Source of the DNA: Candidatus Omnitrophota bacterium
Lineage (GTDB): Bacteria > Omnitrophota > Gorgyraeia > Gygaellales > Profunditerraquicolaceae
NCBI GenBank assembly: GCA_026387435.1
Contig: JAPLLS010000035.1
Span: 1,692 to 65,691, forward strand
Direction of reading: 5' to 3'
DNA: 64,000 bases
The translations under genes were made by a program, and so were the position numbers. Positions 4,501 to 18,708 of the stretch are shown piece by piece. The notes beneath the pieces were generated by a model. That model was not told the DNA's origin and searched no databases. It was given only the letters and a program-made list of their open reading frames with translations. The stretch's first letter is position 1, and every line of letters begins with the position of its first letter.

Positions 4501-5367
4501 TTAGAATTTCAATTGTCCGCCCTGGGTAAACTTGATCAATATTGGGCCGGCAACAATGATTAAAACCACAGGCAGAATAAAGAAAAGCAGGGGGAATAAG
4601 AGTTTGATCGGCGCTTTTAAAGCCATTTCCTCGCCTTTTTGAAAGCGGATATCGCGCAATTCTTCAGCGTGCATTTTAAGCGCGGTAGTGATCGGAGTAC
4701 CCATTCTATCCGCTTGGAGCAAAGTGCGGACAAAAGAATTGATCTCCTGGCTTTTAATCCGGGCGGCCAGGTTTTTCAAAGAATCCCTGCGGGAAAGGCC
4801 CATCTGGATCTCCCGGACTAAAACTTTCAATTCCTCAACTAATACGCACGGCCGGAATTCTTTAATGACATGATTAACCGCAACCATAAAATCCAGGCCT
4901 GCGCCAACGCAGATATTCAAAAGGTCGATTACATACGGCAGGTCTTTTAAGACTTCTTTTTTTCTTTTCTTGATCTGGTTGGTAAGCCAAAGATCCGGGA
5001 GAAAATAGGCTATGACCATGGCCAAAACTAAGATCCACGGCTGAGGCTGGAAAAGGATATAGAGCCCTAAAGGCAAGCCAACCGTAGACAAAAACTTCAG
5101 GGCCATGAACTGGCTCATGTTCATAGGCCTGCCGGCAGCATATAATTTAAGTTTGATCTTTTCCGTAAATTTTGATTTTTTGACCAGCCGGTCGGTGAAT
5201 TGGGCGGTAAAACTCAAAACTTCTTTAGTGTCGAATTTCTTGGACTCTTCCTGGCCTTTCATCTCCTTAGGTAAAGTGACTTCTTCCAGCACGTGCTTGC
5301 TGGTCAATAAGAAGAAGGCCATGCTGATACAAAGAATCAATAACATCAAAGCCATAACTAAAAGCAT
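4501..5367 (-). CDS. tadC: TadC-like pilus assembly inner-membrane protein (T2SS-F/GspF domain)
   Basis: 288 aa polytopic protein. Its T2SSF-type cytoplasmic domain (…LKVLVREIQMGLSRRDSLKNLAARI…QADRMGTPITTALKMHAEELRD…) is followed by C-terminal TM helices. It lies directly after the TadB-like gene. Confidence 0.8.
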   Translation of the reverse strand: MLLVMALMLLILCISMAFFLLTSKHVLEEVTLPKEMKGQEESKKFDTKEVLSFTAQFTDRLVKKSKFTEKIKLKLYAAGRPMNMSQFMALKFLSTVGLPLGLYILFQPQPWILVLAMVIAYFLPDLWLTNQIKKRKKEVLKDLPYVIDLLNICVGAGLDFMVAVNHVIKEFRPCVLVEELKVLVREIQMGLSRRDSLKNLAARIKSQEINSFVRTLLQADRMGTPITTALKMHAEELRDIRFQKGEEMALKAPIKLLFPLLFFILPVVLIIVAGPILIKFTQGGQLKF

Positions 5368-5368
5368 A

Positions 5369-6220
5369 TTACACCTCTACCTTGCTTAATTTTCTGATCA
5401 GGATTATGCCGATTATTTCCGAACACGCCGCCCAGATCAAAAGCTTCCGGCCAATAGGGCTATTAAGCATTATATCGAAACTTTCAGGATTCACTTGTTT
5501 TACAAACAAAGCAAAAGCGATCGGCAGGATGCACATGATCAGTCCCTGGAGCCGGCCCTGCACGGTTAAAGCCCTGACTTTTCTCTCCAGCTTGATCTTG
5601 TCTCTGATGGTAATAACCAGCTGGGCGAAAATATCGGTTAAATTACCTCCGGTCTCGCGGGCTACGGAAACTGCGGAAGTTATCAGCCCCAAATCGTCGA
5701 TCGGCATTCTTTTCCTCAAATTATCCAAGCACTCATCCAGCGGCATTCCCATGCTGTTTTCCCTGACTACCAGGGCAAATTCTTCACGCATGGGGTCAGG
5801 CATTTCTTCGACCAATATTTCAAAAGCCTGGTTTAAACTCATCCCCGCTTTTAAAGCGCTGGAAAGGATCATTAAGGCATCAACCAGCTGCCCCTGGAAT
5901 TTCATCCTGCGCCGGAAAGCCAGGTTCTTCATTATAGCTGCGGGGATAATGAAACCGACGGCAAGGCCCGCGCCGATGCCGATAAGAGGGAATTTGCGCA
6001 ACAAAACATACCCCGCCAAGGCTAATACCACCGGGGATATGGTAAAGAACGGCAACATCTTGCGCCCCTGGTTGGCCATGAACAGGCGGTCAAGGCCGGA
6101 CGCGGTTGTATCCATTCTTTTTTTCTGAAGCTTGGAATATTTATCCGTGCCTACGGGAATGGACACATAGGCCAAGTATCCGATCGACCCTAAAAAAAGA
6201 ATGAGGATTATAAATACCAT
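5369..6220 (-). CDS. tadB: TadB-like pilus assembly inner-membrane protein (T2SS-F domain)
   Basis: 283 aa; T2SSF domain signature (…DALMILSSALKAGMSLNQAFEIL…SVARETGGNLTDIFAQL…) with flanking TM segments. Confidence 0.8.
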   Translation of the reverse strand: MVFIILILFLGSIGYLAYVSIPVGTDKYSKLQKKRMDTTASGLDRLFMANQGRKMLPFFTISPVVLALAGYVLLRKFPLIGIGAGLAVGFIIPAAIMKNLAFRRRMKFQGQLVDALMILSSALKAGMSLNQAFEILVEEMPDPMREEFALVVRENSMGMPLDECLDNLRKRMPIDDLGLITSAVSVARETGGNLTDIFAQLVITIRDKIKLERKVRALTVQGRLQGLIMCILPIAFALFVKQVNPESFDIMLNSPIGRKLLIWAACSEIIGIILIRKLSKVEV

Positions 6221-6244
6221 TTAACCTCTTGGTTGATTATCTGC

Positions 6245-6442
6245 TTAATTGCTGGTGTGAAGGGGATCATATTGCCTGCCGTGGCCGAATATATCCATCG
6301 ACTGTTTCCATTTCCCGGAAACAGCCCTTTTCAAGTAGGCAGACATGCCTAAAAGAGCTACGCCCACAACCGCTACAAGAACGGCGTATTCGATTAAGGA
6401 CATCCCTTTTAATGGTCTATATTTCATTTTACTGGCTTTCAT
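6245..6442 (-). CDS. flp: Flp-like (class III / type IVc) prepilin
   Basis: 65 aa; KG|MSLIEYAVLVAVVG leader/processing motif (Gly-1, Glu+5), a single hydrophobic helix, and the M-x-Y-x-KRAVSGKWK motif shared with its paralogs. Confidence 0.65.
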   Translation of the reverse strand: MKASKMKYRPLKGMSLIEYAVLVAVVGVALLGMSAYLKRAVSGKWKQSMDIFGHGRQYDPLHTSN

Positions 6443-6677
6443 GGAATATGTTCATCGGTGTGTTGCCGTTTCCCTGGTTAAAAAAATCGACCCCGGTTGC
6501 CGCGGTGCCCGTATTCATGTTACGGGTAGTTTCGTAAGCATTATGCCGGTTGACTATTCTGGCCCCAAACCAGACAAACATTTTGGTGGCCAGGACAACA
6601 AACAAAACCAGCATCACAAAGGTGATCACGAATTCCAGGCTGACCTGAGCTTTTAATCTCACTTTGGAGTTGTCCAT
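6429..6677 (-). CDS. Minor pilin / pseudopilin-like protein (TadE-like size class)
   Basis: 82 aa; KA|QVSLEFVITFVMLVLFVVL N-terminal prepilin-type segment followed by a short polar domain. Confidence 0.5.
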   Translation of the reverse strand: MDNSKVRLKAQVSLEFVITFVMLVLFVVLATKMFVWFGARIVNRHNAYETTRNMNTGTAATGVDFFNQGNGNTPMNIFHESQ

Positions 6678-7627
6678 GTTTTTGTGGGTTCCGCATCTCC
6701 GAAAGTAACGGTTACGTCATCACGGCCGCTTGATGTTATTATAACATGATTTAGAATTTCTGCACTATTTAATGATTCCGTGCTGGTATAACTATTGGCG
6801 TTTTCCACTAAGCCAAGGGTGCTGTCCCTTTTGATATCTTTATTCACCACTTGTTGTACTTCCAGAGTCGAATTCATTTGGCCGGCGTTTGGATTTAAAA
6901 AGTCGATCACTGCAGGAGGATCTCCCGCATTCCCGCTAACATCATAAACCCCATAATACTCTAGGCCGGACCTGGCGCTGTCATATTTCGTCGAGTCTAA
7001 AATACTTTTTTCACAATAATCCTCTAGGCAATCTGTATCATTCATTAAAACCATGACTTGTTTGGTGCCGTATCCCGGCTCCTGCTGATAAACCTTGGTT
7101 TGCGCCAGACTGCCAATATTGTAAATATCGTTGACTCCCTTAAGAATCGAGTCTGTATTCACTATTATGCTCCCGGGCTCGGGTTCCAAAGCTGCAGTAG
7201 TGTACTCCCGGATAACCGGAGCAACAAGATTGCTATCGGGATTAAAAACATATTGCACTGATTCTGAAGTGTCGAGAGTAGCATAATCTAATGGCGTGGA
7301 ATTATTGCTCCAATAAACTCCCTGTGCTCCCGTCCTTGCTTGGACCGTGCTCCTGCCTCCCAGACCAAACATATCCGTAGGATCGGGGGTTTCCACATCC
7401 TTGCGCACATCCACCACTTGAGCCTTAGGGACATTTGATGCGCTGGCCTTTTGCATAGCCCGGCGGAAAGCCTCCATTTTTGTTTCCTGCTCATAATTGA
7501 ACGACACGCCTTGCGAGACCATATAAGCTAAGACCATAAGAAGCAAAGAACCAAAAACCGCCACCTCGGCGAGGCTTTGGCCTTTATTACCCGGCCGGTT
7601 TTCTTTGATCCAACTGAAGTTTACCAT
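6659..7627 (-). CDS. Large minor pilin-like protein with a prepilin N-terminus (322 aa); candidate tip/adhesin subunit
   Basis: N-terminus …NKG|QSLAEVAVFGSLLLMVL carries the same G|QSxxE(+5) motif as the pilin array. A large polar C-terminal domain follows. Confidence 0.5.
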   Translation of the reverse strand: MVNFSWIKENRPGNKGQSLAEVAVFGSLLLMVLAYMVSQGVSFNYEQETKMEAFRRAMQKASASNVPKAQVVDVRKDVETPDPTDMFGLGGRSTVQARTGAQGVYWSNNSTPLDYATLDTSESVQYVFNPDSNLVAPVIREYTTAALEPEPGSIIVNTDSILKGVNDIYNIGSLAQTKVYQQEPGYGTKQVMVLMNDTDCLEDYCEKSILDSTKYDSARSGLEYYGVYDVSGNAGDPPAVIDFLNPNAGQMNSTLEVQQVVNKDIKRDSTLGLVENANSYTSTESLNSAEILNHVIITSSGRDDVTVTFGDAEPTKTWTTPK

Positions 7628-7953
7628 GGGTTTAAATGCTCGCTGCCTGTTCTGGTCTGTTCTACTTGCTGAGAATCTGTCTCGTCTACTGCGTATTCAT
7701 CACCGTTCGTGATAACCTGGTAATTTGAGATGGCCTCGGAGTTCACGTTGGTCTGGATCGACGATAATTCCATGCCCTCTGAATCATAGGGGTTTTCGCT
7801 TATTTGATCCGCAGCCTGCTTGGCCTTGCCCTCAACAGCCCTTTTCATATAGAACTGCATAGCGATAATTCCTGCGGCTATGATAGCCACCAGGAAAGCG
7901 TATTCCAGCGTAGATTGCCCTTTTAATCTAAATTTTTTCATTGGTTTTTTCAT
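7621..7953 (-). CDS. Flp-like prepilin paralog
   Basis: 110 aa; KG|QSTLEYAFLVAIIAAGIIAMQFYMKRAVEGKAKQ. Confidence 0.6.
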   Translation of the reverse strand: MKKPMKKFRLKGQSTLEYAFLVAIIAAGIIAMQFYMKRAVEGKAKQAADQISENPYDSEGMELSSIQTNVNSEAISNYQVITNGDEYAVDETDSQQVEQTRTGSEHLNPW

Positions 7954-7955
7954 CG

Positions 7956-8477
7956 CTATCTGCCTCCAGCACCGGAGTTAGTTACTCCGCTGCGCCCGGC
8001 AGCTCCGCCGCCGCCGAAACCGTTGCTGCCGCCGAAACCGCCGCCGAAACCGTTGCTGCTAGGTGTCGTATCTGCAAACGTTGGAAATGTTTGCGCATAG
8101 AAGACCGGGCTGTGGATAATGCCGTACTTAAGGTACTCTGCCGGCGGTATAATTACGCTAGAGGATGCGTCAGTAACGCTGCTGTCTTGATTGATTTGAA
8201 ACCTTCTGTCGCCCCTGGCGTATTCATTAGTGATAAATTCCTGGTTAGAAACTGTTACGGTGGGATCCGGCGCATAATCCCACCCTACTGTTCTGCCCCC
8301 CTCTGTTTGCGGGTCTATACCCATGGCCTGTAATACAGGAGACCCCAGGTCATCGCTAGTAGACTTGATAATCCCCTGGATCCCTCTTTTAAAATAGGCC
8401 TGCATCGCAAAAACGGTTATCGCGACGCAGCCTATGAGCAAAGAATATTCCAGGAAACTCTGGCCTTTTCTCATCAT
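7956..8477 (-). CDS. Flp-like prepilin paralog with a Gly-rich C-terminus
   Basis: 173 aa; KG|QSFLEYSLLIG…MQAYFKRGIQG… and a C-terminal GFGGGFGGSNGFGGGGAAG tail. Confidence 0.6.
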   Translation of the reverse strand: MMRKGQSFLEYSLLIGCVAITVFAMQAYFKRGIQGIIKSTSDDLGSPVLQAMGIDPQTEGGRTVGWDYAPDPTVTVSNQEFITNEYARGDRRFQINQDSSVTDASSSVIIPPAEYLKYGIIHSPVFYAQTFPTFADTTPSSNGFGGGFGGSNGFGGGGAAGRSGVTNSGAGGR

Positions 8478-8517
8478 TATCCTTAAATTTTTAGAATCCT
8501 ACCCCAGGCAGCGCCAC

Positions 8518-8847
8518 CTATGGTTCAAGTGAAACATAGGTTGTGCTTCCTTGCGAGGTAAAATTCGAGTCAAAATCGCTGATCCGCTCGCCTCTGTTGC
8601 GGATATCCAGATATGTATTTTGCGACGTCTGGAAATCAGAGCTGCTGGAATAATAGTACGGCTCGTATTGACCGGCTTCAGCGCTCACGGATGCAGCGTC
8701 AACAACGTTCCGATAACGGCCGGAAACCCCCCGCTTGACATAAGTAACCATAGCCACAGCCGCCAATAAAACTGCGGCCAGGCAAAAAGCGTATTCAAGC
8801 GCGCCTTGGGCTTTCCGGCTCCTGGCCGGTGATTTACTGGCCTTCAT
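8518..8847 (-). CDS. Flp-like prepilin paralog
   Basis: 109 aa; …KAQG|ALEYAFCLAAVLLAAVAMVTYVKRGVSGRYRN; Ser-rich C-terminus. Confidence 0.55.
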   Translation of the reverse strand: MKASKSPARSRKAQGALEYAFCLAAVLLAAVAMVTYVKRGVSGRYRNVVDAASVSAEAGQYEPYYYSSSSDFQTSQNTYLDIRNRGERISDFDSNFTSQGSTTYVSLEP

Positions 8848-9160
8848 ACAGATCTGCGCCTGCTCCGGTAGTCCACGTTGCCAAAGCTTCCTGACCCGTC
8901 TTAGAACTTACCGAGTCTGCGTTGAGAGTCGTCGTTGCTACCCCGCCAGCTTCCGATTGATGCGCATCTGAGTTTGAGGTAGACGTTAAAGTGGCGGTAT
9001 ATTTCGCCGGCTCAAACTGTTCTCCCATATTATCACCAGCGGCTTTTAATTTCCCTTCCCAACCGCGTTTGACATAAAACTGCATGGCCAAAAGCCCGCC
9101 GACAATAATTGCTACAACTATAGCGTACTCCAGTGTGCTTTGCCCTTTTCTGTTTAACAT
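8834..9160 (-). CDS. Flp-like prepilin paralog
   Basis: 108 aa; KG|QSTLEYAIVVAIIVGGLLAMQFYVKRGWEGKLK; Ser/Thr-rich C-terminus. Confidence 0.6.
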   Translation of the reverse strand: MLNRKGQSTLEYAIVVAIIVGGLLAMQFYVKRGWEGKLKAAGDNMGEQFEPAKYTATLTSTSNSDAHQSEAGGVATTTLNADSVSSKTGQEALATWTTGAGADLYEGQ

Positions 9161-9201
9161 TTTTTTGTCCCTCCTCGTCTAAATAATTTTTATTAAGCGC
9201 G

Positions 9202-9543
9202 TTATTGGGGTGCTAAAGTAGTATCCACAGCACCGCTTTTTTTCCTGGATTCCTCACTGATCCCGTTGTTGTTAAGTCCGCCGTTATTTGCCCAAACAGC
9301 CTGCTTTGTTGAAGAACTGGTCATGTCCGCTTCGGATTGGACATAATACGGTTCATACTGGGCGCCGTCAAAAGTTAAAACTTGGCCCCCGACATCCGAG
9401 CCAGTGCCGGTATGGTCAACGGCATTTCTCACTCTTCCCTGAAGACCTCTTTTAACGTAAGTCTGCATAGCTGCAGCTGCTCCGACAACCAAAGCAAGCA
9501 GTATCGCGTACTCCAAAATATTCTGCCCTTTGCGATTAAACAT
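9202..9543 (-). CDS. Flp-like prepilin paralog (start placed at the internal Met)
   Basis: ORF 9202..9642 carries an implausible N-terminal extension. The prepilin-type start MFNRKG|QNILEYAILLALVVGAAAAMQTYVKRGLQGRVRN begins at 9543. Confidence 0.55.
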   Translation of the reverse strand: MFNRKGQNILEYAILLALVVGAAAAMQTYVKRGLQGRVRNAVDHTGTGSDVGGQVLTFDGAQYEPYYVQSEADMTSSSTKQAVWANNGGLNNNGISEESRKKSGAVDTTLAPQ

Positions 9544-9586
9544 CTTTTCACCTCCCATTATTAGTTTTGCATTATTTTTACTAAAC

Positions 9587-9763
9587 TTATCCCCCCGCTC
9601 CCGGTAATCTGCCGGTGGCGTCAGAAACAGAACTAGCCGCATCGCTTACCCCAGTGTCCACTGCCGGTTTCAGATACTGGTTTGCCCCGTAGGCAATTGC
9701 CGCTACAACTACCGTCAGGACGATTACGTATTCCAAGATACTCTGTCCCCTTTTATTACGCAT
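9587..9763 (-). CDS. Short Flp-like prepilin (58 aa), not in the ORF track
   Basis: Manual translation: MRNKRG|QSILEYVIVLTVVVAAIAYGANQYLKPAVDTGVSDAASSVSDATGRLPGAGG*. Confidence 0.55.
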   Translation of the reverse strand: MRNKRGQSILEYVIVLTVVVAAIAYGANQYLKPAVDTGVSDAASSVSDATGRLPGAGG

Positions 9764-9802
9764 CTTTTACCTCCCTTTCTTCTGTTTACTGTTTTAGATA
9801 AA

Positions 9803-9946
9803 TTACGGACCCTCGTTCACTCTATCTTGAATGAGCTTGAAATTGGCCTTGACCGCCCGATTGCCGTAGAGATACATCGCCGAAAAAGCCATGGCTACTA
9901 CCGCGATCAACAGCGCATATTCAATTACGCTCTGAGCTTTTTTCAT
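9803..9946 (-). CDS. Short Flp-like prepilin (47 aa), not in the ORF track
   Basis: Manual translation: MKKA|QSVIEYALLIAVVAMAFSAMYLYGNRAVKANFKLIQDRVNEGP* (Ala at -1). Confidence 0.5.
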   Translation of the reverse strand: MKKAQSVIEYALLIAVVAMAFSAMYLYGNRAVKANFKLIQDRVNEGP

Positions 9947-9963
9947 ATACACTCCTGTGTTAC

Positions 9964-10377
9964 TCAGGCACTTGCCGCGTTTATCTCTGCCTGAATAATT
10001 CCCACTACTGCCCGCTGCGCATCTGTTAATGTCCCGTTTATCTCTATTGCCTTGTTCCCGGGATCATAGTTGCTTCTGCCGCTTATCAGTATTCCCGCGG
10101 CCACCAATCGCCTGATCTGCGACGGAGTCAAATAAACACTCGTCGGAATAGTTACCTGCGCATCATAACCGGGGACGATCGGGTCGTTAGGATCGACAAC
10201 GGGAACCGAGATCGGTTTTATGCTCGGGGTCAAGCCAAACGAATTGCCGATAGAAGCCGCAGCAAGATTCCTGCCCGTTTGTATTTTGGTCCCCATGCCG
10301 CTTGAGGCCAACAGAATCGCGGCAACGATCGCTGTAAGTATGATTAAATATTCTAAGATACTCTGGCCTTTTTTCAT
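9964..10377 (-). CDS. Flp-like prepilin paralog (137 aa)
   Basis: MKKG|QSILEYLIILTAIVAAILLASSG…. Confidence 0.6.
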   Translation of the reverse strand: MKKGQSILEYLIILTAIVAAILLASSGMGTKIQTGRNLAAASIGNSFGLTPSIKPISVPVVDPNDPIVPGYDAQVTIPTSVYLTPSQIRRLVAAGILISGRSNYDPGNKAIEINGTLTDAQRAVVGIIQAEINAASA

Positions 10378-10379
10378 CG

Positions 10380-10553
10380 CTAATTCCCCGTGCTTATACT
10401 CGGATCCGCATCCAGTAAACCGTTTATTGACCCTACGGCCGCTTGCGTTCCCTGTTGGACCTTGCTTCCAAAATTGCTTGACGCCGCCATGATCGCGGCA
10501 ATTATCACGGTAATGGTGATCACGTATTCCAGCGTGCTCTGAGCTTTTTTCAT
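10380..10553 (-). CDS. Short Flp-like prepilin (57 aa), not in the ORF track
   Basis: Manual translation: MKKA|QSTLEYVITITVIIAAIMAASSNFGSKVQQGTQAAVGSINGLLDADPSISTGN*. Confidence 0.5.
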   Translation of the reverse strand: MKKAQSTLEYVITITVIIAAIMAASSNFGSKVQQGTQAAVGSINGLLDADPSISTGN

Positions 10554-10555
10554 CT

Positions 10556-10735
10556 CTATGATCCTCCGCCCGAGGCTACGCCCAGCGAGTTCACTATCGA
10601 ATCCGCGGCTTTATCCATCCCGCCTTGTATGCTGCTGTGCATATAGCCCGAAGCTGCCATAATCGCGGCAACGATTACGGTAAGGACGATCACATATTCC
10701 AGTATGCTCTGGCCTTTTTTAATTTTAATCATCAT
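10556..10735 (-). CDS. Short Flp-like prepilin (59 aa), not in the ORF track
   Basis: Manual translation: MMIKIKKG|QSILEYVIVLTVIVAAIMAASGYMHSSIQGGMDKAADSIVNSLGVASGGGS*. Confidence 0.5.
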   Translation of the reverse strand: MMIKIKKGQSILEYVIVLTVIVAAIMAASGYMHSSIQGGMDKAADSIVNSLGVASGGGS

Positions 10736-10745
10736 ATGCCCTTCC

Positions 10746-10916
10746 TTATTTGACTATATTTGCGACCGCCTGAATAAAAGTATTGTTGGCGGCATTTTTA
10801 ATATCGACAAAATTATTATTATGTATAAAGCCTAAAGCAATCGCTACCACTATAATGGTAAGAATGAAGTATTCGAATATTGACTGTCCTCTTTCATTAT
10901 AAGTTTTGTCGGACAT
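10746..10916 (-). CDS. Short Flp-like prepilin (56 aa), first gene of the array, not in the ORF track
   Basis: Manual translation: MSDKTYNERG|QSIFEYFILTIIVVAIALGFIHNNNFVDIKNAANNTFIQAVANIVK*. An AGAGGG Shine-Dalgarno sequence lies upstream. Confidence 0.5.
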   Translation of the reverse strand: MSDKTYNERGQSIFEYFILTIIVVAIALGFIHNNNFVDIKNAANNTFIQAVANIVK

Positions 10917-10927
10917 CGCGCCCTCTC

Positions 10928-10962
10928 TAAAAAAAGGAACTGGTTACCAAATAACGGTAGCC
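10928..10962 (-). terminator. Terminator-like hairpin plus T-run in the 5' leader of the pilin array (possible attenuator)
   Basis: The minus strand reads GAACTGGCTACC-GTTATTTG-GGTAACCAGTTC followed by CTTTTTTT. This lies between the predicted promoter (11057-11085) and the first pilin start (10916). Confidence 0.35.
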
Positions 10963-11056
10963 AGTTCTTAGAGTAAACCCATTCAACGATTTTTGGCCGT
11001 GGCTACCATCTCCAAAATCGTACTTTTTATAAAATTACTTTCCTTTAGTCACTAGA

Positions 11057-11085
11057 AATATAACACACCATTGAGCCTTTGTCAA
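11057..11085 (-). promoter_or_regulatory. Sigma70-like promoter for the pilin array
   Basis: On the minus strand: TTGACA (11080-11085), a 17-nt spacer, and TATATT (11057-11062). Confidence 0.4.
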
Positions 11086-11195
11086 TCCGCGCAGGCCTTA
11101 AAAAGAAACCGTTTTCTTATTCAAAACCCCTGGTAATTGCAAAGAATGCGAGTTTCTAAGCATTTAACATGAAGATATTCCGGCGGGAAGAAGAA

Positions 11196-11269: not shown

Positions 11270-12325
11270 CTATTGATAGGCAGCCAAAGTTTCTTCAAAT
11301 TTGAATAATTGGCCTTCGGGAGTAAAAACTCTTTCCTTATTAATACTGCTGACCGCGAACTTAAAATCGTCCTGCCAGACAATATCGCAGATAGCGTTGA
11401 AACTGAGGGGATAAAGAAATTGCACATTAATCATTGAATCCTTTCTTTCAATTTTGGCGGCAAGGCTATAAAAACGATCGCGCATTGCCGAAAGATCCAG
11501 GAATTGGTACACTGAAGGGAAAAAGGACTGTTGCGCTTTCTTATTCAGGCATATGAGGATTTTTTGATATAAGTCATTGATTTCATTGATGTTCTGCGGT
11601 AAACCCAAGCTGATAAGATCCGCGTTTAGCTGATTAAAGGGCAATTTGGCTAACCGCTCATAAACGGAATCAAAATCTTTAATAGCCGGCTCTTTCCCCA
11701 ACATTCTCAAGATATTGGCTTCATCTTTAAGAAGTGGCTTATAAACTTTCAATTGTATCAGGACCCGAAGGGCATCTTCGCTAAGACCAGGCAGACAAAT
11801 TGAGATTTTTTGGGCCAGAAGTCCGGTCAAACCGAATTTATAGTCAACCATTAAGAGAAATATTGCCCCCCCGCTTTCTATGAGCACGCTTGGTTCGGAC
11901 GTCGACCTAAATTCAATTGATTTAATGCCTTCTGGCTCCAGGGCAATTTCTCTCTTTTCAAATTCCGGATTCGCCCGAGCAGGCGAATAAAAATCCGCGG
12001 CTTCGAAAACCGGCTCTTCCTTTGGGCTGACCCAGTTATCAGCTGATTTTTCCTGGGCTGCCGGTTCTTTGATTATGACCAGCGAAGGAACCTCCTGTCT
12101 CGGCAAAGGGGACAAAGCTGTTTTTTGCCTTATTCCTGGCCTTCCGATCCGATTGCTTAAACTATTTGCTTTAATTATCTTGTTTATTGAAGATTTAGAT
12201 ATTTCTACTTTAAATTCTTCTTTTATTAAGGAAACTAACTTGCGGCAGGAAAACTTGGGATTTTCCCTTTTTTTGCTCAAAATAAACTCTTCTATTTCGC
12301 TTTTTAATTTATACGGTTGGGTCAT
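11270..12325 (-). CDS. Hypothetical protein with an N-terminal helix-turn-helix-like domain; candidate regulator
   Basis: 351 aa. The first ~60 aa (…FSCRKLVSLIKEEFKVEISKSSINKIIKANSL…) resemble an HTH. No DDE or other catalytic motif was recognised. Its own promoter carries three TGGACATTTAT repeats. Confidence 0.35.
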   Translation of the reverse strand: MTQPYKLKSEIEEFILSKKRENPKFSCRKLVSLIKEEFKVEISKSSINKIIKANSLSNRIGRPGIRQKTALSPLPRQEVPSLVIIKEPAAQEKSADNWVSPKEEPVFEAADFYSPARANPEFEKREIALEPEGIKSIEFRSTSEPSVLIESGGAIFLLMVDYKFGLTGLLAQKISICLPGLSEDALRVLIQLKVYKPLLKDEANILRMLGKEPAIKDFDSVYERLAKLPFNQLNADLISLGLPQNINEINDLYQKILICLNKKAQQSFFPSVYQFLDLSAMRDRFYSLAAKIERKDSMINVQFLYPLSFNAICDIVWQDDFKFAVSSINKERVFTPEGQLFKFEETLAAYQ

Positions 12326-12333
12326 GTTCTAAT

Positions 12334-12402
12334 TTGGACATTTATTTCAGGTTTTGGACATTATTTATTTTAACTATACCATACTTCTGGACATTTATCA
12401 AT
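12334..12402 (-). promoter_or_regulatory. Promoter of the HTH gene containing three direct repeats of TTGGACATT(T)AT
   Basis: Repeat copies at 12334-12345, 12354-12366 and 12388-12402. The coding strand reads TTGATA-N17-TATAGT (-35 at 12396-12401, -10 at 12373-12378). One repeat overlaps the spacer and two lie between the -10 box and the ATG. Confidence 0.45.
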
Positions 12403-12433
12403 ATTAATAATAAAAGGGAGGGGAATAGCAGGC

Positions 12434-12778
12434 TTATTCTATAATTATAATTTCATCTTTTATTTGAGTTTTACTGGCTTGAATTGCCCCTTCGGGTAAT
12501 TCAATAGTAGTAATTGCCTTAAAGTAGATCGGGCTTACCCGAAACGGCTTGAACCCGGGAGTTAGGGCGATTACCTGCCTATTGCGGTCCAGGAATATGG
12601 CGTCAAAAGTAAAGCGCATGAAAAAAGAGTGGATGGAATTGGAAGGAGTAATAATTAGGCCTTCGCTTGGCTTAAGGCTGGGGCGATTCAATAGCCCGAC
12701 TAATCTCGAAAAGAATGTATCGGCGGTCTTGGCTTTATCCGCAAGAACCGTGTTGCGGGAACGGTTAATTATCCTCAT
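12434..12778 (-). CDS. DUF192 (COG1430) family protein
   Basis: 114 aa; …ADTFFSRLVGLLNRP…GLIITPSNSIHSFFMRFTFDAIFLDRN… matches the DUF192 pattern. Confidence 0.6.
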   Translation of the reverse strand: MRIINRSRNTVLADKAKTADTFFSRLVGLLNRPSLKPSEGLIITPSNSIHSFFMRFTFDAIFLDRNRQVIALTPGFKPFRVSPIYFKAITTIELPEGAIQASKTQIKDEIIIIE

Positions 12779-14958
12779 TATTTAGGTTTAAAGATATCTT
12801 CGGAAATAGAAATACCGCGTCTTTTGATCTCGTCAAAGAAGGTGGGAAGGTTTCCAGTAGGGGTAAAGTAGCCTTCGACTTTGCCCAGCTCGCCTACTCC
12901 GGTTTGCTTGAAGTCGAATAAATCCTGCATTCCAATATGCAGTTCATCGGTCATGCCGGTCAATTCGCTTATCTGGACGACTTTCCTGGAGCCGTCAGAA
13001 AGCCGGGCAGTATGCACGATCAAATCTATGGCCGAAGCGATCATTTCGCGGATAGCGCGCAAAGGTATTTCTATCCCGCCCATCAAGATCAAAGAGTCAA
13101 GCCTGGCCAGAACGTCCTGGGTGGAATTGGCGTGCAGGGTGGTCATTGAGCCGTCATGGCCGGTATTCATAGCCTGAAGCATGTCCAGGGCTTCCAGGCC
13201 GCGGCACTCTCCGATGATTATCCGGTCCGGGCGCATACGCATGGAGTTGCGGAACAAATCGCGCACGGTTATAGCGCCCTTACCTTCTATATTTTGCGGC
13301 CGGGACTCCAGCCTTACCCAGTGCTGATGATGAAGTTTTAATTCCGCGGCGTCTTCGATAGTGAGGATCCTTTCTCCGTCGGGGATAAATTCGGAAAGGA
13401 TGTTCAAGACCGTGGTTTTACCTGAGCCGGTTCCTCCAGAAACGATGATATTCTTGCGGGATATAACACAGATTCTTATAAATTCACCCATCACTTCATT
13501 AAGAGAATTGATGCGGCACAGGTCTGTTACAGTCATCCGTTCCTGGGGGAACTTACGGATAGTCAAAGTCGGGCCGGTCAGCGCCAAAGGCGGGATTATG
13601 GCGTTAACGCGGGAACCGTCGATTAATCTTCCGTCGACCATGGGCACGGATTCGTCTATCCTTCTGCCCAAAGGCGCAATGATCCTCTCGATTATCTGCC
13701 GGACTTGCCCGTTAGAAACGAACTTCTTGGCAGTCAGTTCCAATTTACCGTTTTTCTCCACATATATCTGGTTTTTATTGTTGACCATGATGTCGGTCAC
13801 CAGCGGATCGGCAACCAGATCCTCAAGCGGGCCGAGGCCGACGGCTTCATCGATCATTTCTTTAATAAACTGCTGCCGTTCGGTAAATGAAGGGACAAAA
13901 CTTTCCGTCTCTTCAGCCAGGGAATTGGATATCGATTTTTTGACCTTTTCTTTCAACTCCCGCAATTTCTTCGGGTCGCCGAGCACTACTTCCAGGCGGT
14001 GCAAATCCAGATCCTGGATGATCTTCAAGTGTATGCGCTGTTTCAACTGGTTGAGCTTGTCTTCTTTGGTTAACTGCTTGGGCTGGAGATTTTCCCGGGA
14101 GGAAAGGCTTAACCCTCCCTTGGTCTCGCTTTCCAGAGCCACTTCAAGGCTCTCGTCGGAAAGAGTCTCGATAATAGCGCCCTCAAGCTTCTTATGAACG
14201 GTAAAAAGCTCCTGGTCGGTAAGCAGATCGTCCGCAAGCTTATCGATCGCCAGCGAAGCCTTGGCCCGGGGATTATCCAGTACCAGCGGGTTTCTTCTGT
14301 TTAAAGCCAGGCATACGGCTTTGCCGTCGGAAGGGATGCGCGCAATTATCTCGCCGGGAATGGCGGATTTGACTTCCAGAAAAGATACGCCCCCCAGACT
14401 CTCTGCGCGGTTCAAAACTACTTTCATCATCCGCAAAGGGAAAGCAAAAGACTGCATGATATCTATGGCCTCTTTTACCTGCCCTACAGAAAGCACATCG
14501 GGATTGACGACAAATAAGATCAGGTTGGATTTCCCAAGGGTGGTAAGCAGGACTTTGGTAAAAACGCCGCCGCCTTCGATTACGATATAATCGTAAATTT
14601 TATCCAGCTGGTCGCATAGCGAGGCGATAAATTTCTCTTTTATTACCCCCCGCTGCCGGATATTCAGGGTTATTGGAAGGAAGTCCAGGCCGCTGAAGTT
14701 ATGGTGCAGGATATATTCCTGGATTTGAGTTAAATTGAACTGATCGTTGGTTTCCCATTCCGGGACAATATCGGCCAGGCTATGGACCGGTTTTAAATCC
14801 ATCAGCTTTGCGATATCTCCGGGGAGTTGCAAATCCAGGTCGACCAGAAGAACTTTGCCGTTGCCTATTTTGCGGGCGAGGCTGGTAGCGATATTAACGG
14901 CCAGGAAGGTTCTTCCTACTCCCCCTTTAGGGCTGAAAATGGCTATTGTTTTGGCCAT
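12778..14958 (-). CDS. Fusion protein: ParA/MinD-like TadZ/CpaE ATPase domain (N) + TadA/CpaF type II/IV secretion ATPase (C)
   Basis: 726 aa. The N-terminal half shows [19 protein letters not shown] (deviant Walker A) and [13 protein letters not shown]. The C-terminal half shows Walker [10 protein letters not shown], an Asp box and a His box [13 protein letters not shown], typical of CpaF/T2SS-E. Confidence 0.75.
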
Positions 14959-14959
14959 A

Positions 14960-16864
14960 TTATCTTTTTTGTTCTAGATTATACACGATAGGAATTTGCA
15001 CCCAGAGATCCTGCTCGCTTATATCCCGCGGGAAAGACGGGTAAGGAGCAATCCGCCTGGCAATGCTCATAGTATTCTCGTCAAGCACGCTATAACCCGA
15101 TGAATCGCTGATATTAGAATCAAGCAAATCCCCGGCTTTGGCCAGGTGCAGATTTAAAACAACTGTCCCTTGCAGCTCAGCCTGCTTGGCTGCCCAGGGA
15201 TAGAAAATATTATTGCTGAGGTATTCGCTGACTAGCTGGACGTATTCTTCGGCCGGTCCACCGAAAAGAACCTCCTGTTGCCCTTCGGCAAAAGGTTTTC
15301 TAGGGGAAACCGTTGCTCCTTTGTTTTGGACAGGGGCATTGCTCTTGGCAAGAACCGGCTGTTGTCTGCCGCCGGCAAAAGATTTTCCCTGCGAAACGAC
15401 CACTCCTCTATTTTGTTTATTGGCAGGGCCGGTTGCAGCAGCTCCTTGTTGCCCTCCGGCAAAGGGTTTTGTTTGTGAAACTACCACTCCCTTATTGTTT
15501 GCCGAAGAATATATCTTGGGAGCTATCGCTTCTTTACCCTCTTCCGGCCGGGAATCAGCTATTTTATCTCCACCGGGCTTAATTTGATTTTTTTTTTCCG
15601 CTTCCCGCTTTTCCGGGCCTTTATCCTCGACCACTGAGGGGGTAACCATGATGACTAACTCGGTGTCCCCCATCTCATCTTCTCCACCGCCCCTTATGGT
15701 AGTCCGGTGGCGGAAAAATACTCCCAAAATCGGGACTTCACCCAGCCAGGGGAACTTCTTCAGGTCTTCTTCGGTCTTTTGTTTGATCAAACCGCTGATC
15801 GCCAAAGTCTGGCCATTGTTAAGATAAAGCTGGGTAGAGGTTGAGCGTTTGCTTATAGGCCAGGCTTTGGCCGTTGGGGCAGTGACTAAGCCCAATACTT
15901 CCGCAGTCCCGACATCGCTGACTTCCACATTAAGCCCGAGCTTTATTTTTCCGTCGGAATTTAAAGAAGGAGACATTTTCAACTTGATCCCATACTCCTT
16001 ATACTCTACGGTATTGGAAGTGTTCGAACTACCGCTTACGCTTTGAGTGGTCATGACCGGCTTTTCCCCTCCGACCAAAAGCTCAGCTTCCTTGCCGCTC
16101 TGGCAAGACAATTTTGGCCGGGAAAGTATCTTAGCCTTGTTGTCTTTGACCATTAAATTCAAGGTCGCTTCCAATTGCTGATGCGTCCATTCACTCACTC
16201 TGAACAATGAGTTCGGAACATCGGCAAGCCTATCCCAACGCGGGGGCTCAGTAAGCAGCACAGACCCGCCGCTTAAAATCCAATCCATGCCCATTTGTTT
16301 AGTATAGCCTTTGTCTACCTCTATGATTTCGACTTCCAGTTCGATGATCGCTTTTTCTTCTTCGATCTGGATCAAATTGGTGGTCCTGGCAAAAAGGCCG
16401 CCCAGCGCGGTTTTGACCCGTTCCATGTCTTCCTTGGTTTTTACGCTGCCTAACAATAAAACTTTGCCTTCGCTGTCAGAGGGTTCGGTAGAAATCTGAG
16501 ACAAATTCAATTCCTTGAGCAGATCTTTAATCCGAGCATTGACATAAGCCATGGCTTCGGTAAGGACCTTTAAACTTGTATGGTGTTCGCCTTTTTCGTC
16601 CCACCAGATCAAGTTCGTAGATCCGGCCCCTTTGCCGACAACCACGATCTCTTTGGTGCTGACCGAAAGGATATCAGCTATCTCGGGCTTGCCGATGACC
16701 ACGCGAGTAGGAGTATTTACGCTGATCGACTTTAACTCGCCCTGATATAAAGTTTCTTCCGAGGAAGAAATTGCCGCCTTTTTTGTCTCCTGAGAAAAAA
16801 CAAGCTCCCTGCCCGGCAATAAAAACAGAGATAGAATTATTAAAAATGCCCGCGCTTTTCTCAT
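14960..16864 (-). CDS. cpaC: CpaC/RcpA-type secretin with a C-terminal repeat linker and TonB C-terminal-like domain
   Basis: 634 aa. It has a signal peptide and a pilus-formation N-terminal region (VNTPTRVVIGKPEIADILSV…). The secretin core reads …NGQTLAISGLIKQ…FPWLGEVPILGVFF…TELVIMVTPSVV. Three repeats of about 25 aa follow (NKGVVVSQTKPFAGGQQ…). The TonB_C-like end reads …QGTVVLNLHLAKAGDLLDSNISDSSGYSVLDENTMSIARRIAPYPSFP. Confidence 0.7.
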   Translation of the reverse strand: MRKARAFLIILSLFLLPGRELVFSQETKKAAISSSEETLYQGELKSISVNTPTRVVIGKPEIADILSVSTKEIVVVGKGAGSTNLIWWDEKGEHHTSLKVLTEAMAYVNARIKDLLKELNLSQISTEPSDSEGKVLLLGSVKTKEDMERVKTALGGLFARTTNLIQIEEEKAIIELEVEIIEVDKGYTKQMGMDWILSGGSVLLTEPPRWDRLADVPNSLFRVSEWTHQQLEATLNLMVKDNKAKILSRPKLSCQSGKEAELLVGGEKPVMTTQSVSGSSNTSNTVEYKEYGIKLKMSPSLNSDGKIKLGLNVEVSDVGTAEVLGLVTAPTAKAWPISKRSTSTQLYLNNGQTLAISGLIKQKTEEDLKKFPWLGEVPILGVFFRHRTTIRGGGEDEMGDTELVIMVTPSVVEDKGPEKREAEKKNQIKPGGDKIADSRPEEGKEAIAPKIYSSANNKGVVVSQTKPFAGGQQGAAATGPANKQNRGVVVSQGKSFAGGRQQPVLAKSNAPVQNKGATVSPRKPFAEGQQEVLFGGPAEEYVQLVSEYLSNNIFYPWAAKQAELQGTVVLNLHLAKAGDLLDSNISDSSGYSVLDENTMSIARRIAPYPSFPRDISEQDLWVQIPIVYNLEQKR

Positions 16865-17814
16865 TTTTTCTTCCCTTCGGATATTAGAGGAATCACTTCT
16901 TTTTGCAGTCCGCGGTAGACTTCTACGGTAACCGGCATTTTCCCCTCTTCCCTGGCCTTGGGGTATAAATATTCGAATAGATTATCCCAGTTAACCGGGT
17001 CGACCTCGGTCTGGGACAGATCAGAATTGGAACGCGTAACCAGCTTGATCTTTCCCTGTTCCTGAATAAAAGAGGCTAAAGCCGCTTCTTGAGGAGTAAG
17101 CGACAAGGTAACTGCATTTGCCGCGGCACTTGTCCCTTTCCCTTTAGGCTGCTCGATGTGCGCTCCGCCCGTATCTGAACCGATGGCCAGCACCAGGACA
17201 TTTTGAAAAAGCGGCACAGTAACTGACTTTTTTTCCTGTTTTTCCGTCTGTCCTCTGGGAGTTCTATTGACAATAGCATCAATAGTAGACCCCGGCGGAG
17301 GGCTGATTATTGCCAAAGCGTCCACATAATCCCCCGGCTGCAGCAATCCCTGAAGGCTGGCGATATTATCGACCAGCACAGAAACCGCCCTTTTGCCGCG
17401 GGGGGTGATTTCCGAGATGATTTTGGGTTTTTCCGGCGGAGCCCCAAGCTTATTCCTGAGTATCTGCTCGCCTTCGAGGATCTGTGACTGGGCGTACACT
17501 CCGACGATGTTAATAGTTGAGGCTATCGCCCCTGGCTGGATATAATCTTCCGGGACTTCCCGGCTGGCAATATCTTCGGCCACGATCGGCACTCCGGGAG
17601 AAATGGTGCGCGCTGCCACCAGAATAGCAACTTTCTTAACCTGCCTGGCCAGCCTTTCAGCTTCCTCGCGCTTCTTGACCGCTTCTATCTCTGTTTTTAA
17701 CTTCAACTCTTTTTCCGCAATATACATGCGGGCCAACACCGCTGCCAGAATACCACAAGCAATAGCAATTACGATCAACAACTTCTTTTTAAATTCCGGA
17801 TTAGGCTGAAACAT
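16861..17814 (-). CDS. cpaB: CpaB/RcpC-like Flp pilus assembly protein
   Basis: 317 aa. It has an N-terminal TM and a SAF-like segment (VAARTISPGVPIVAEDI). It lies immediately upstream of the secretin. Confidence 0.55.
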   Translation of the reverse strand: MFQPNPEFKKKLLIVIAIACGILAAVLARMYIAEKELKLKTEIEAVKKREEAERLARQVKKVAILVAARTISPGVPIVAEDIASREVPEDYIQPGAIASTINIVGVYAQSQILEGEQILRNKLGAPPEKPKIISEITPRGKRAVSVLVDNIASLQGLLQPGDYVDALAIISPPPGSTIDAIVNRTPRGQTEKQEKKSVTVPLFQNVLVLAIGSDTGGAHIEQPKGKGTSAAANAVTLSLTPQEAALASFIQEQGKIKLVTRSNSDLSQTEVDPVNWDNLFEYLYPKAREEGKMPVTVEVYRGLQKEVIPLISEGKKK

Positions 17815-17817
17815 AGG

Positions 17818-18708
17818 CTATTTCACCTTTTCTTGGTAATACGTAACGCTGGTTTTTTTGGCTAATTTGCCATTGAGCTCCTGCATTTTCTGCCGTTGTT
17901 TTATAGACACATAGGTACTCTTAACCTCGTCCCAAACATCATTTAAAGAAGGCACCTGGCCTCCGCGGCTGGCATCAAGCCTGATGATGTAATAGCCCCG
18001 CTTGTCTTTAAACACCGAGCTGATCTGCCCGTTTTCCAAAGAAGGCGAGAAGGCAATTTCGTCAAATTTCTTAAAGTCTGCCCCCCGCTGGCCTTTGGCG
18101 ATAAAACCCAGATCCCCGCCCTTAGAAGCGCTTTCCGCCTTGGAGCGCTCCTGAGCTAATGAAGCAAAATCCGTGCCTTTCAGCAATTCAATGAGGACCT
18201 CTTTAGCCTCGGCTTCGGTAGGCACCATAATTTCGCGGATCCTCCGTTCTTCGGCGGGGCGGAACTGGTCCTTATACTGCGCGTAGAAAGCCTCTATTTC
18301 CTTGGCCGGAGGGTTGGAATCTATGGTTTCTTTACTCAAAAATTCCCCGGCAACCAGGCTTACTTCCACATTTAAAAGCTGCTCTCTGATCTTGGGCTCC
18401 TTGTCAATGCCGTTGGCCTTAGCCTCGATATAGAAAAGATACCGGGGGACCAATACTTCTTTTAAGTAAGCGGTCTTTTCTTCCGGAGTCAATTTCTTAG
18501 GCTCAGCGTCCTTATTGAAGCGGGCATTCATCTCCGCGATCTCCTGGTCCAGCTGTTCCAGGGTAATATACATATTTCCTACTTGGGCAATGATCGTTCC
18601 TTCGGGTTTGACGGAGGGGGTAAGCGCGGTTGCGCCTATTTTCAGTTTTTCACAGCCGGTTAACGAAAAGGCGAGCAGGATCAAAAAAAAGAAAAACGAG
18701 TTTTTCAT
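17818..18708 (-). CDS. Lipoprotein parvulin-type peptidyl-prolyl isomerase (PpiC/PrsA/SurA-like)
   Basis: 296 aa. It has a lipobox LTGC and a rotamase domain …RRIREIMVPT…GGDLGFIAKGQ…FDEIAFS…GQISSVFKDKRGYYIIRL. It lies 4 bp upstream of cpaB. Confidence 0.6.
   Translation of the reverse strand: MKNSFFFFLILLAFSLTGCEKLKIGATALTPSVKPEGTIIAQVGNMYITLEQLDQEIAEMNARFNKDAEPKKLTPEEKTAYLKEVLVPRYLFYIEAKANGIDKEPKIREQLLNVEVSLVAGEFLSKETIDSNPPAKEIEAFYAQYKDQFRPAEERRIREIMVPTEAEAKEVLIELLKGTDFASLAQERSKAESASKGGDLGFIAKGQRGADFKKFDEIAFSPSLENGQISSVFKDKRGYYIIRLDASRGGQVPSLNDVWDEVKSTYVSIKQRQKMQELNGKLAKKTSVTYYQEKVK

Follow-up and report, generated by a model that had tools for sequence, protein, structure and literature searches.

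Gene content and conservation of the locus

We analyzed a pilus-like locus in a 64-kb stretch of DNA from a Candidatus Omnitrophota bacterium (contig JAPLLS010000035.1). The whole stretch is hereafter called the window, and all coordinates refer to it. The genes of the locus are encoded on the minus strand and run uninterrupted from 18708 to 4501. As described later, the region is likely to encode a filament machine of the tight adherence (Tad) class, or type IVc, which is conserved across Candidatus Omnitrophota directly upstream of giant genes.

The first gene of the machinery operon (17818–18708) encodes a parvulin-type peptidyl-prolyl isomerase (PPIase), a predicted lipoprotein (N-terminus ...LTGC) that matches Rotamase_2 (54 bits) and Rotamase (50 bits) in Pfam. 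The next gene (16861–17814) encodes a CpaB/RcpC periplasmic alignment protein, which is recognized by TIGR03177 pilus_cpaB (151.9 bits against a cutoff of 71) and by the Pfam families RcpC (70 bits) and SAF. It is followed by the gene of a Tad-type, RcpA/CpaC-like secretin (14960–16864; Pfam Secretin 135, TonB_C 52, and T2SS-T3SS_pil_N 49 bits) and by that of a 726-aa protein in which CpaE/TadZ is fused to the CpaF/TadA ATPase (12778–14958; AAA_31, and T2SSE at 203 bits). The start codon of the following gene, encoding a DUF192 protein (12434–12778; 55 bits), overlaps the stop codon of the ATPase gene. A 351-aa protein with a weak N-terminal helix-turn-helix (HTH) match (11270–12325; HTH_32, 24.8 bits, below the Pfam threshold) precedes an array of 14 small pilin-like genes (10916–6245). 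The locus ends with two inner-membrane platform proteins, each with one T2SSF domain, of the TadB type (5369–6220; 65.9 bits) and the TadC type (4501–5367; 51.9 bits).

The locus was compared with related Omnitrophota-type loci, designated L001, L002, L003, and L010, and with one JGI contig. The order parvulin, cpaB, secretin-TonB_C, cpaE::cpaF, DUF192, HTH-like, 11–15 small open reading frames (ORFs), tadB, tadC, and giant gene is common to all related contigs, and synteny including the giant gene is kept in all five. The genome nearest by the ATPase is the Candidatus Omnitrophota metagenome-assembled genome (MAG) PPR_0461, at 85% identity. The parvulin gene keeps its place in L002, L010, and the JGI contig. 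In these three and in L003, the HTH-like gene also keeps its place, the orthologous proteins having 315–341 aa. The DUF192 gene is conserved in all related loci and is coupled translationally to the ATPase gene in every Omnitrophota locus. TadB shares 77–91% identity with its orthologues, with a ratio of nonsynonymous to synonymous substitution rates (dN/dS) of approximately 0.11; the ratio for TadC is 0.07–0.14. The giant gene, of which the ORF at 1–3906 is the beginning, belongs to this conserved unit. The unit therefore extends past 4501, and a boundary drawn there severs part of it.

A first-pass annotation of this DNA had remarked on the parvulin gene as an unusual neighbor 4 bp upstream of cpaB. 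The gene is indeed conserved in that place, but the gap is 3 nt and the gene was already reported by West-Roberts et al. 2023. A DUF192-like gene also adjoins an unrelated, Binatota-like Tad locus (L005, ~4650–4940, plus strand). Our literature search for DUF192 linked to Tad systems found no paper.

The 14 pilin-like genes

All 14 ORFs that the first-pass annotation had described as consecutive minus-strand prepilin-like genes are present at their coordinates between 10916 and 6245. Each encodes a basic leader ending in Gly or Ala, four residues and then Glu at +5, and a hydrophobic helix. An aromatic residue follows at +6 in 13 of the 14, giving the Flp motif G↓xxxxEY (the arrow marks the predicted cleavage site). 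The predicted leaders are 4–16 aa long, and not 3–9 aa as had been stated. A regular expression for the motif matches 15 times in the six frames of the 64 kb, 14 of them inside the array, against a mean of 0.22 in shuffled sequences; this clustering is far beyond chance. A hidden Markov model (HMM) built from the orthologues of the other loci only recovers exactly these 14 segments of the window (E = 6e-21 to 3e-6), and the next match has an E value of 0.48.

Positional orthologues exist for every one of the 14 in L001, L002, and/or L010. The dN/dS values of the array ORFs, calculated for full-length pairs, are 0.2–0.55 and lie below 1 for all 14. A Shine-Dalgarno sequence stands upstream of 11 ORFs, and the remaining 3 overlap the preceding gene. 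Since homologues, gene-for-gene orthology, constrained dN/dS, and translation signals or overlaps all coincide, the 14 ORFs are real genes.

The array opens with short Flp-like pilins. W01 (10746–10916; 56 aa; ERG↓QSIFEYF) has orthologues in L001, L002, and L010, with 50–55% identity to those of L002 and L010 and a dN/dS of 0.28 against L002. W02 (10556–10735; 59 aa; KKG↓QSILEYV) belongs to a variable W02–W04 group and is 81% identical to its L001 orthologue (dN/dS 0.22). W03 (10380–10553; 57 aa; KKA↓QSTLEYV) has a dN/dS of 0.22 and a Class_IIIsignal match at E = 0.041, and W04 (9964–10377; 137 aa; KKG↓QSILEYL) carries a C-terminal extension, with 68% identity to the L001 orthologue and a dN/dS of 0.29. 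Two further short Flp-like pilins follow. W05 (9803–9946; 47 aa; KKA↓QSVIEYA; Flp_Fap E = 0.031) is 85% identical to the L010 orthologue, and its start is most likely the ATG at 9946, which gives 47 aa as in that orthologue. W06 (9587–9763; 58 aa; KRG↓QSILEYV) shows 71–79% identity to its orthologues.

The next five proteins are longer. W07 (9202–9543; 113 aa; RKG↓QNILEYA; dN/dS 0.20–0.28) has a Ser/Thr/Gly-rich tail, and W08 (8834–9160; 108 aa; dN/dS 0.20–0.46) has 21 public homologues at 47–94% identity, some of them named UPF0333. W09 (8518–8847; 109 aa; RKA↓QGALEYA) comes closest to a Pfam assignment, as mentioned below. W10 (7956–8477; 173 aa; RKG↓QSFLEYS) has a Gly-rich C-terminus and orthologues of 134–326 aa (dN/dS 0.26–0.52), and W11 (7621–7953; 110 aa; LKG↓QSTLEYA; Flp_Fap E = 0.037) occurs in two copies in L001. 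W12 (6659–7627; 322 aa; NKG↓QSLAEVA; predicted helix at 19–62) is a large minor-pilin-like protein with ten homologues (37–60% identity) and two invariant Cys residues. It has no Pfam match, and its sequence agrees fully (100% identity) with NTY14_02310 from a MAG labeled "Candidatus Omnitrophica bacterium". W13 (6429–6677; 82 aa; LKA↓QVSLEFV; TadE E = 0.047) is a TadE-like pseudopilin with orthologues at 56–65% identity; W13 and its orthologues match TadE at E = 0.019–0.047, below threshold. The array closes with W14 (6245–6442; 65 aa; LKG↓MSLIEYA; Flp_Fap E = 0.0011, 19.2 bits), a Flp-like pilin with 67–77% identity to its orthologues.

A segment directly after the helix, AMxxYxKRxxxG, is shared by W07–W11 and W14 and is degenerate in W05. 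The subfamily motif had been noticed earlier, with the spacing off by one in two places; the correct form is A-M-x-x-Y-x-K-R-x-x-x-G.

Family searches are consistent with pilins. In the 51 family members that four loci supply, three Pfam families recur and no others, namely Class_IIIsignal (12), Flp_Fap (10), and TadE (3), all of them sub-threshold at E < 0.1, so that the pilin assignment, proposed for checking by HMM, obtains weak but recurrent matches and no match at gathering score. N_methyl matches 1 of the 51 (E = 0.027). In the opposite direction, an HMM of the Omnitrophota N-termini was searched against 1,653 stop-to-stop segments of five unrelated Tad loci. It picked out 11 Flp genes (E ≤ 0.002), and the next match (E = 0.21) is a TadE-like protein.

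The shortness of several ORFs (<60 aa) and their failure to reach a Pfam gathering score could be taken to mean that they are spurious, or that the locus is a degenerate remnant whose function is fulfilled by a canonical tad operon in another place. We consider this scarcely credible. The ORFs are 1:1 positional orthologues in four loci down to ~40% identity under the purifying selection described above, 11 have Shine-Dalgarno sequences, the machinery genes are intact and strongly constrained, and a related system is reported as expressed by Seymour et al. 2023. The conservation data refute the spurious-ORF reading.

Composition of the array

Eleven paralogues (W01 and W05–W14) are kept one-to-one as far as L010, where the identity of W12 falls to 40%. 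The W02–W04 group is absent in L010 and expanded or lengthened in L002. The copy-number comparison with relatives that had been suggested thus shows variation only in this group and in W11. By orthology, the array has a fixed make-up of distinct paralogues, with 11 core members and up to 3 variable ones. Antigenic diversification, one of the explanations offered earlier for the many paralogues, and copy-number variation were rejected as unlikely, since each paralogue has its 1:1 orthologue in the other genomes and evolves under purifying selection. A multi-subunit fiber, which had also been offered, fares better. Since the 11 paralogues are one-to-one across distant genomes, they probably hold distinct structural roles and are not interchangeable variants, and the fixed set plausibly favors a multi-subunit filament or pseudopilus.

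The Ser/Thr- or Gly-rich tails are long, of low complexity, and fast-diverging (39–63% identity versus 77–84% for the machinery). It is conceivable that only a few of the 14 build the filament and that W04 and W07–W12 are surface or secreted proteins that use the class III signal just to be targeted to the membrane and displayed by the machine, like the sugar-binding proteins of the archaeal bindosome. The descent of Tad from archaeal systems (PMC6668835) would fit this idea, as would weak NCBIfam matches of TadC and the ATPase to the bindosome proteins BasF and BasE. These matches, however, lie far under the cutoffs, and no recognizable binding domains are found in the tails. Furthermore, AMxxYxKRxxxG stands directly after the helix in six proteins, as expected of a shared packing interface. 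We judge this explanation to be quite improbable.

Class of the machinery

The assignments of secretin, TadB, TadC, CpaB, and the CpaE::CpaF fusion made in the first-pass annotation agree with the results of Pfam, NCBIfam, and PDB searches. In the fusion protein, residues 1–~260 form a ParA/MinD-like domain and residues 330–716 the motor domain. The former, corresponding to TadZ/CpaE, matches AAA_31 (56 bits), CbiA, and ParA, and MinD structures at 1e-13. The motor matches structures of Caulobacter CpaF (9e24 and 8rkd) at E = 1e-111 over residues 331–716, and archaeal GspE and FlaI at ~1e-39. Its top NCBIfam model is TIGR03819 of the TadA family (333.9 bits, under its cutoff of 373), whereas the GspE, PilB, and PilT models score 44–62 bits, the GspE model TIGR02533 reaching 50 bits against a cutoff of 630.

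The secretin matches the RcpA structure 8odn (1.9e-28) ahead of all GspD (~1e-20) and PilQ structures. The platform consists of two neighboring single-T2SSF genes, as in canonical Tad systems, and no GspC-, GspL-, or GspM-like genes were found in the locus. Because the ATPase matches CpaF and the secretin matches RcpA over their Gsp relatives, the core is, by homology, of the Tad class (type IVc) and not of the T2SS (type II secretion system) class, despite the "type II" names of the Pfam families.

The secretin carries an extra C-terminal TonB_C domain, which is atypical for RcpA/CpaC secretins. L002, L010, and the JGI contig have this fusion too. Where the secretin domain is joined to TonB_C, the linker (residues ~455–530; window ~15275–15502, minus strand) contains three ~25-aa repeats, N-K/R-G-V/A-V-V-S-Q/P-x-K-P/S-F-A-G/E-G-Q/R-Q. 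The TonB_C fusion, conserved in all related loci, may substitute for the missing TadD pilotin or S-domain.

The CpaE::CpaF fusion is not confined to the related loci. Among the best 150 representative clusters, at least 36 are homologous over their full length and measure ~700–780 aa. The named ones are "TadA" proteins of Bdellovibrionales/Bdellovibrionaceae (751–762 aa, 41–42% full-length identity), and a Bdellovibrio study describes a TadZA hybrid (10.64898/2026.07.08.737194). Further Tad loci were included in the comparison, namely the unrelated L005–L008 from Binatota-like or "delta proteobacterium" MAGs and L013 from a Bdellovibrionales MAG. Apparent fusion matches at 37% identity in L005–L008 were rejected, as they are adjacent separate cpaE and cpaF genes joined by tblastn. 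TadZ-TadA fusions do occur in L011 (1664–13236) and L013 (5107–13149), Tad-like loci in which a single T2SSF gene was detected and which have plain secretins and few pilins. A gene for an RHS-repeat protein follows in L013. Because the fusion is present in these two loci, it is older and broader than the Omnitrophota locus type.

Prepilin peptidase and TadD

The first-pass annotation had noted that prepilin peptidase and TadD are absent, and this holds for the window in Pfam searches, ORF reading, and tblastn/phmmer searches. No Peptidase_A24 domain and no TPR or TadD-like protein was found in the window by Pfam on the plausible candidate ORFs and by reading of the other ORFs of ≥110 aa, and no TPR lipoprotein that would correspond to the TadD pilotin is present there.

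Two proteins of the locus were considered as substitutes for the peptidase. The C39 domain of the giant protein can be set aside by inference: C39 peptidases cut after Gly-Gly, and the pilins read (K/R)(G/A)↓Q. Moreover, the C39 domain comes after a signal or anchor helix and would therefore lie outside the cytoplasm, whereas cleavage of class III leaders takes place on the cytoplasmic side of the membrane. The DUF192 protein was ruled out as a small soluble protein without transmembrane (TM) segments.

Precedents for a peptidase encoded outside the locus are known. The tad loci of Bdellovibrio have no TadV, and PilD, the peptidase of the type IVa pilus (T4aP) encoded elsewhere, processes Flp1 (10.64898/2026.07.08.737194). 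Prepilin peptidases are exchanged between systems, and tadV can lie apart from the locus, as allowed by the MacSyFinder Tad model (Denise et al. 2019, PMC6668835). The Kil system can dispense with its peptidase (Seef et al. 2021, PMC8460266). T4aP genes are carried by most Velamenicoccia (135 of 141 genomes; Seymour et al. 2023, PMC10066038).

The giant gene downstream of tadC

The ORF at 1–3906 (minus strand) encodes the first 1,302 aa of a giant protein and runs off the window. A signal or anchor helix is followed by a Peptidase_C39 domain (~3151–3402; 31.5 bits against a cutoff of 22), the sequence K-V-K-G-G-S (~3073–3078), and a divergent repetitive region. Tandem DNA repeats with periods of 78 and 66 bp (93–94% matches) are found within the gene at 468–627 and 2907–3030, and encode Ala/Ser/Gly-rich peptide units. 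The orthologous genes run from 7489 in L001, 15860 in L002, and 13759 in L010. Orthologous giant proteins have 4,594, 4,858, 6,375, 9,569, and 9,694 aa or more, and most of the genes are cut off by the contig end.

Conservation of the giant protein is sharply divided. Residues 1–275, comprising the anchor and the C39 domain, are 79–88% identical across loci, and the following 1,000 residues are 26–53% identical. The Cys of NYCGVYALN and the His of EHFILVTR in the C39 domain are conserved. The N-terminal module is comparable in this respect to the motor (81–84%) and the platform proteins (77–81%); to L010, it is 79% identical and the motor 81%. Conservation stops right after an invariant K-[VI]-K-G-G-S, with the double glycine at residues 277–278. 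Since conservation ends at this motif, the motif is a plausible double-glycine site for self-cleavage by C39.

Consensus matches, which are all that the following promoter candidates represent, were found for both the array and the giant gene. A sigma-70-like candidate for the pilin-tadB-tadC unit lies at 11057–11085 (minus strand) and reads TTGACA-17-TATATT, including the TG of an extended −10; it agrees with the consensus at 11 of 12 positions, and no site in the region scores higher. An equivalent candidate with an extended −10 TG and 11 of 12 positions lies at 4092–4120 (minus strand) before the giant gene. Because the two share hexamers and spacing, they hint at co-regulation of the pilin array and the giant gene. 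The HTH-like gene, described previously as separately promoted, probably has its own promoter, judging from a promoter-like site at 12401–12373 (minus strand; 10 of 12 positions).

These observations raise the question of whether the locus serves secretion. In a T2SS-like device, a short periplasmic pseudopilus would push the giant protein or its fragments, glycoside hydrolases, or both through the secretin, and there would be no long pilus. West-Roberts et al. 2023 read the locus as T2SS-like and tie it to the giant proteins, and the Kil paper (PMC8460266) raises the same possibility for a Tad-like predatory system. Many fixed, distinct pilin-like proteins look more like the GspG–K set than a single-Flp pilus. 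The giant N-terminal module is conserved about as well as the motor, and the hexamers of the two promoter candidates are identical. Contrarily, the core parts are all Tad-class, CpaF being by far the nearest structural relative of the ATPase and the GspE model scoring far below its cutoff, and the locus lacks GspC, GspL, and GspM as described above. A protein of >4,500 aa with many TM segments is also an unlikely folded T2SS substrate. Taken together, a T2SS-like device appears unlikely.

A variant that keeps the Tad origin can also be considered. The Tad-derived machine and the ~11 core pilin-like proteins may together make up an apparatus dedicated to exporting or displaying the giant protein, in which the anchor-C39 module would dock and self-cleave at the double glycine, releasing or handing over an adhesin/enzyme array of >4,500 aa. 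We regard this proposal as unlikely. If true, it would mean that a Tad lineage independently evolved a T2SS-analogous secretion, for the largest known bacterial proteins.

Proposed mechanism

The reading that we prefer is a Tad-class filament machine. In this model, the 14 prepilins would insert into the inner membrane, and an A24 peptidase encoded elsewhere, most likely the T4aP PilD as in Bdellovibrio, would cut their 4–16-aa leaders after Gly or Ala. The TadB/TadC platform and the TadZ-TadA motor would polymerize the subunits, and the filament would exit via CpaB and the secretin, which may be anchored by its TonB_C domain instead of a TadD pilotin. The parvulin would aid folding in the periplasm or outer membrane. 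One or a few of the short helix-only Flp-like proteins would be the major subunits, and several subunits would carry Ser/Thr- or Gly-rich tails together with the shared AMxxYxKR segment. The TadE-like W13 and the 322-aa W12 are candidates for a priming or tip complex. The filament would probably attach to prey or host cells. It would act jointly with the C39-anchored giant surface protein, serving as a co-adhesin or aiding that protein's export or display.

Several points weigh against this reading. The system is known here from its genes, from which the filament itself is deduced, and synteny is what links the giant gene to the filament machine. A predatory role is assigned by extension from Velamenicoccus archaeovorus, Bdellovibrio, and the Kil system of Myxococcus. 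The pilins all fall short of a Pfam gathering score, coming nearest with 23.5 against 23.7 bits for Class_IIIsignal (W09) and 19.2 against 32.2 bits for Flp_Fap. An AlphaFold2 model of W12, based on 11 homologues, has a mean pLDDT (predicted local distance difference test) of 38.5, with the N-terminal helix alone moderately confident. Finally, tblastn and phmmer searches with the genuine TadV of L013 found nothing in the window, L001–L003, or L010, the positive control being recovered.

Neighboring regions of the window

Upstream of the locus, three genes separate the parvulin gene from an ORF at 22779–26606 (minus strand). They encode a family 2 glycosyltransferase (GT2; 18925–19641), a PMT_2-type glycosyltransferase (19628–21235), and an uncharacterized membrane protein (21200–22795). 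The ORF is the orthologue of a 1,271-aa protein with PIG-L deacetylase and glycoside hydrolase family 3 (GH3) domains, which is encoded directly upstream of the parvulin gene in the related JGI contig. The adjacent 734-aa ORF (26603–28807, minus strand) has a TadG-like or pilin-like N-terminus (KKTPGQVVVIITIF), with no Pfam support and no match to the pilin HMM.

A cluster at 29091–32730 (plus strand) encodes a FIST sensor, a GAF histidine kinase, and a GGDEF response regulator. Just downstream of it, a cyclic di-GMP (c-di-GMP) riboswitch of the c-di-GMP-I-GGC type (33042–33123, plus strand; 64 bits) precedes the gene for a 204-aa secreted protein of unknown function (33186–33800, plus strand). 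Links to c-di-GMP through PilZ and GGDEF proteins have been described around giant genes (West-Roberts et al. 2023, 10.1101/2023.11.21.568195).

Farther along, a membrane-bound hydrogenase or complex-I-like module (36333–43250, minus strand; NADHdh, Oxidored_q2, and antiporter-like subunits) and 2-oxoacid:ferredoxin oxidoreductase genes (46712–49053) are found; both fit an anaerobic lifestyle. A 6S RNA (58569–58728, minus strand; Rfam RF00013, 76 bits) adjoins the gene of a Bro-N domain protein (58788–59660).

Comparison with known systems

The locus had been called an undescribed variant of a type IV filament system. This description does not hold, as the locus type has already been described genomically: the window is another instance with nothing essential different, and the fusion and the absent TadV have precedents in Bdellovibrio. 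West-Roberts et al. 2023 (bioRxiv 10.1101/2023.11.21.568195) placed the same locus upstream of the giant genes of Omnitrophota and reported its conservation throughout the phylum; they list the Rotamase_2 PPIase, many small genes with class III signals, and C39 N-termini of the giant proteins. The window shares with that locus the secretin, T2SSE ATPase, two T2SSF genes, rcpC, Rotamase_2 PPIase, class III small genes, and C39 giant gene. The name Tad complex is used for the system by Seymour et al. 2023 (PMC10066038), who report its expression by V. archaeovorus in co-culture with Methanosaeta. They found TadBC/RcpA in 74 of 116 Velamenicoccia species representatives, with the Omnitrophota TadB/C grouping with Bdellovibrionales and the Velamenicoccia secretins grouping with those of predatory myxobacteria and Lysobacter (PMC10066038). 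In a 2026 preprint, secretion or pilus genes flank 13 of 14 giants.

The published Omnitrophota descriptions (10.1101/2023.11.21.568195; PMC10066038) do not analyze the pilin set. Beyond them, the present analysis adds the 14-gene pilin set with its 11 core members, their 1:1 orthology and purifying selection, and the Tad class of the core. It also adds the TadZ-TadA and secretin-TonB_C fusions, the conserved DUF192 and HTH-like genes, and the finding that the A24 peptidase is not in the locus. Omnitrophota are widespread, uncultured, ultra-small bacteria that are thought to be predators or parasites, and the locus and the giant gene are the foremost candidates for the apparatus with which they contact prey. 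The window offers a clean and complete case, and its analysis gives concrete hypotheses for the V. archaeovorus enrichment culture.

With canonical Tad systems, namely Aggregatibacter flp-tadV-rcpCAB-tadZABCDEFG and Caulobacter cpa/pilA, the locus shares the motor, TadB and TadC, RcpC/CpaB, the secretin, the TadZ domain, and the Flp motif. The gene order is unlike the canonical one, in accordance with the first-pass annotation: the pilins lie between the ATPase and platform genes, TadZ is fused to TadA, and TadV, TadD, and RcpB are not in the locus. Instead of Flp and TadE/F(/G), there are 14 pilin-like genes, with short leaders of 4–16 aa. The parvulin, DUF192 protein, HTH-like protein, secretin TonB_C domain, and linked giant gene are additions.

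The pilins resemble those of archaeal systems of the Epd-like/PF04021/UPF0333 type in that their leaders are short and basic, Gln stands at +1 and Glu at +5, and some of them are very short and consist of the helix only. At E < 0.1, PF04021 matches 12 of the 51; none attains the threshold of 23.7 bits, W09 coming closest, within 0.2 bits. Unlike the archaeal pili, the system belongs to a diderm bacterium and has a secretin and CpaB, and no EppA, FlaK, or PibD is in the locus. An origin of Tad from archaeal Epd-like pili, whose pilins are short, has been inferred (PMC6668835), and an archaeal-like signal is expected from it. Gln at +1, which had been taken for an oddity, is also carried by ordinary Flp genes of the Binatota-like loci L005–L008 (...RG↓QTMAEYALI...), together with Glu at +5 and Tyr at +6.

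The Kil system of Myxococcus xanthus (PMC8460266) is likewise a Tad-derived machine in a predator, with several partly redundant pilin-like proteins and with TadD, RcpB, and TadG missing. Its prepilin peptidase is dispensable or promiscuous, and a secretion role is left open there too. Kil differs from the present locus in having two clusters, an ATPase fused to FHA and not to TadZ, three pilins, and no linked giant gene.

The Tad system of Bdellovibrio (Avidan et al. 2017, PMC5430801; 10.64898/2026.07.08.737194) shares with the window the TadZ-TadA fusion, the lack of TadV in the tad loci, several flp paralogues, and a predatory or presumed predatory owner. It has ~4 flp genes and tadE/F/G in place of the 14-gene array. 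The Bdellovibrionales locus L013 has, unlike the window, the canonical order flp-tadV-...-rcpC-rcpA-tadZA-tadB and an A24 peptidase. The parvulin, DUF192, secretin TonB_C domain, and downstream giant gene, all four present in the window, are absent from L013. The odd features of the window, the TadZ-TadA fusion and the missing peptidase, nevertheless match those of the Bdellovibrio machine, which has been studied experimentally.

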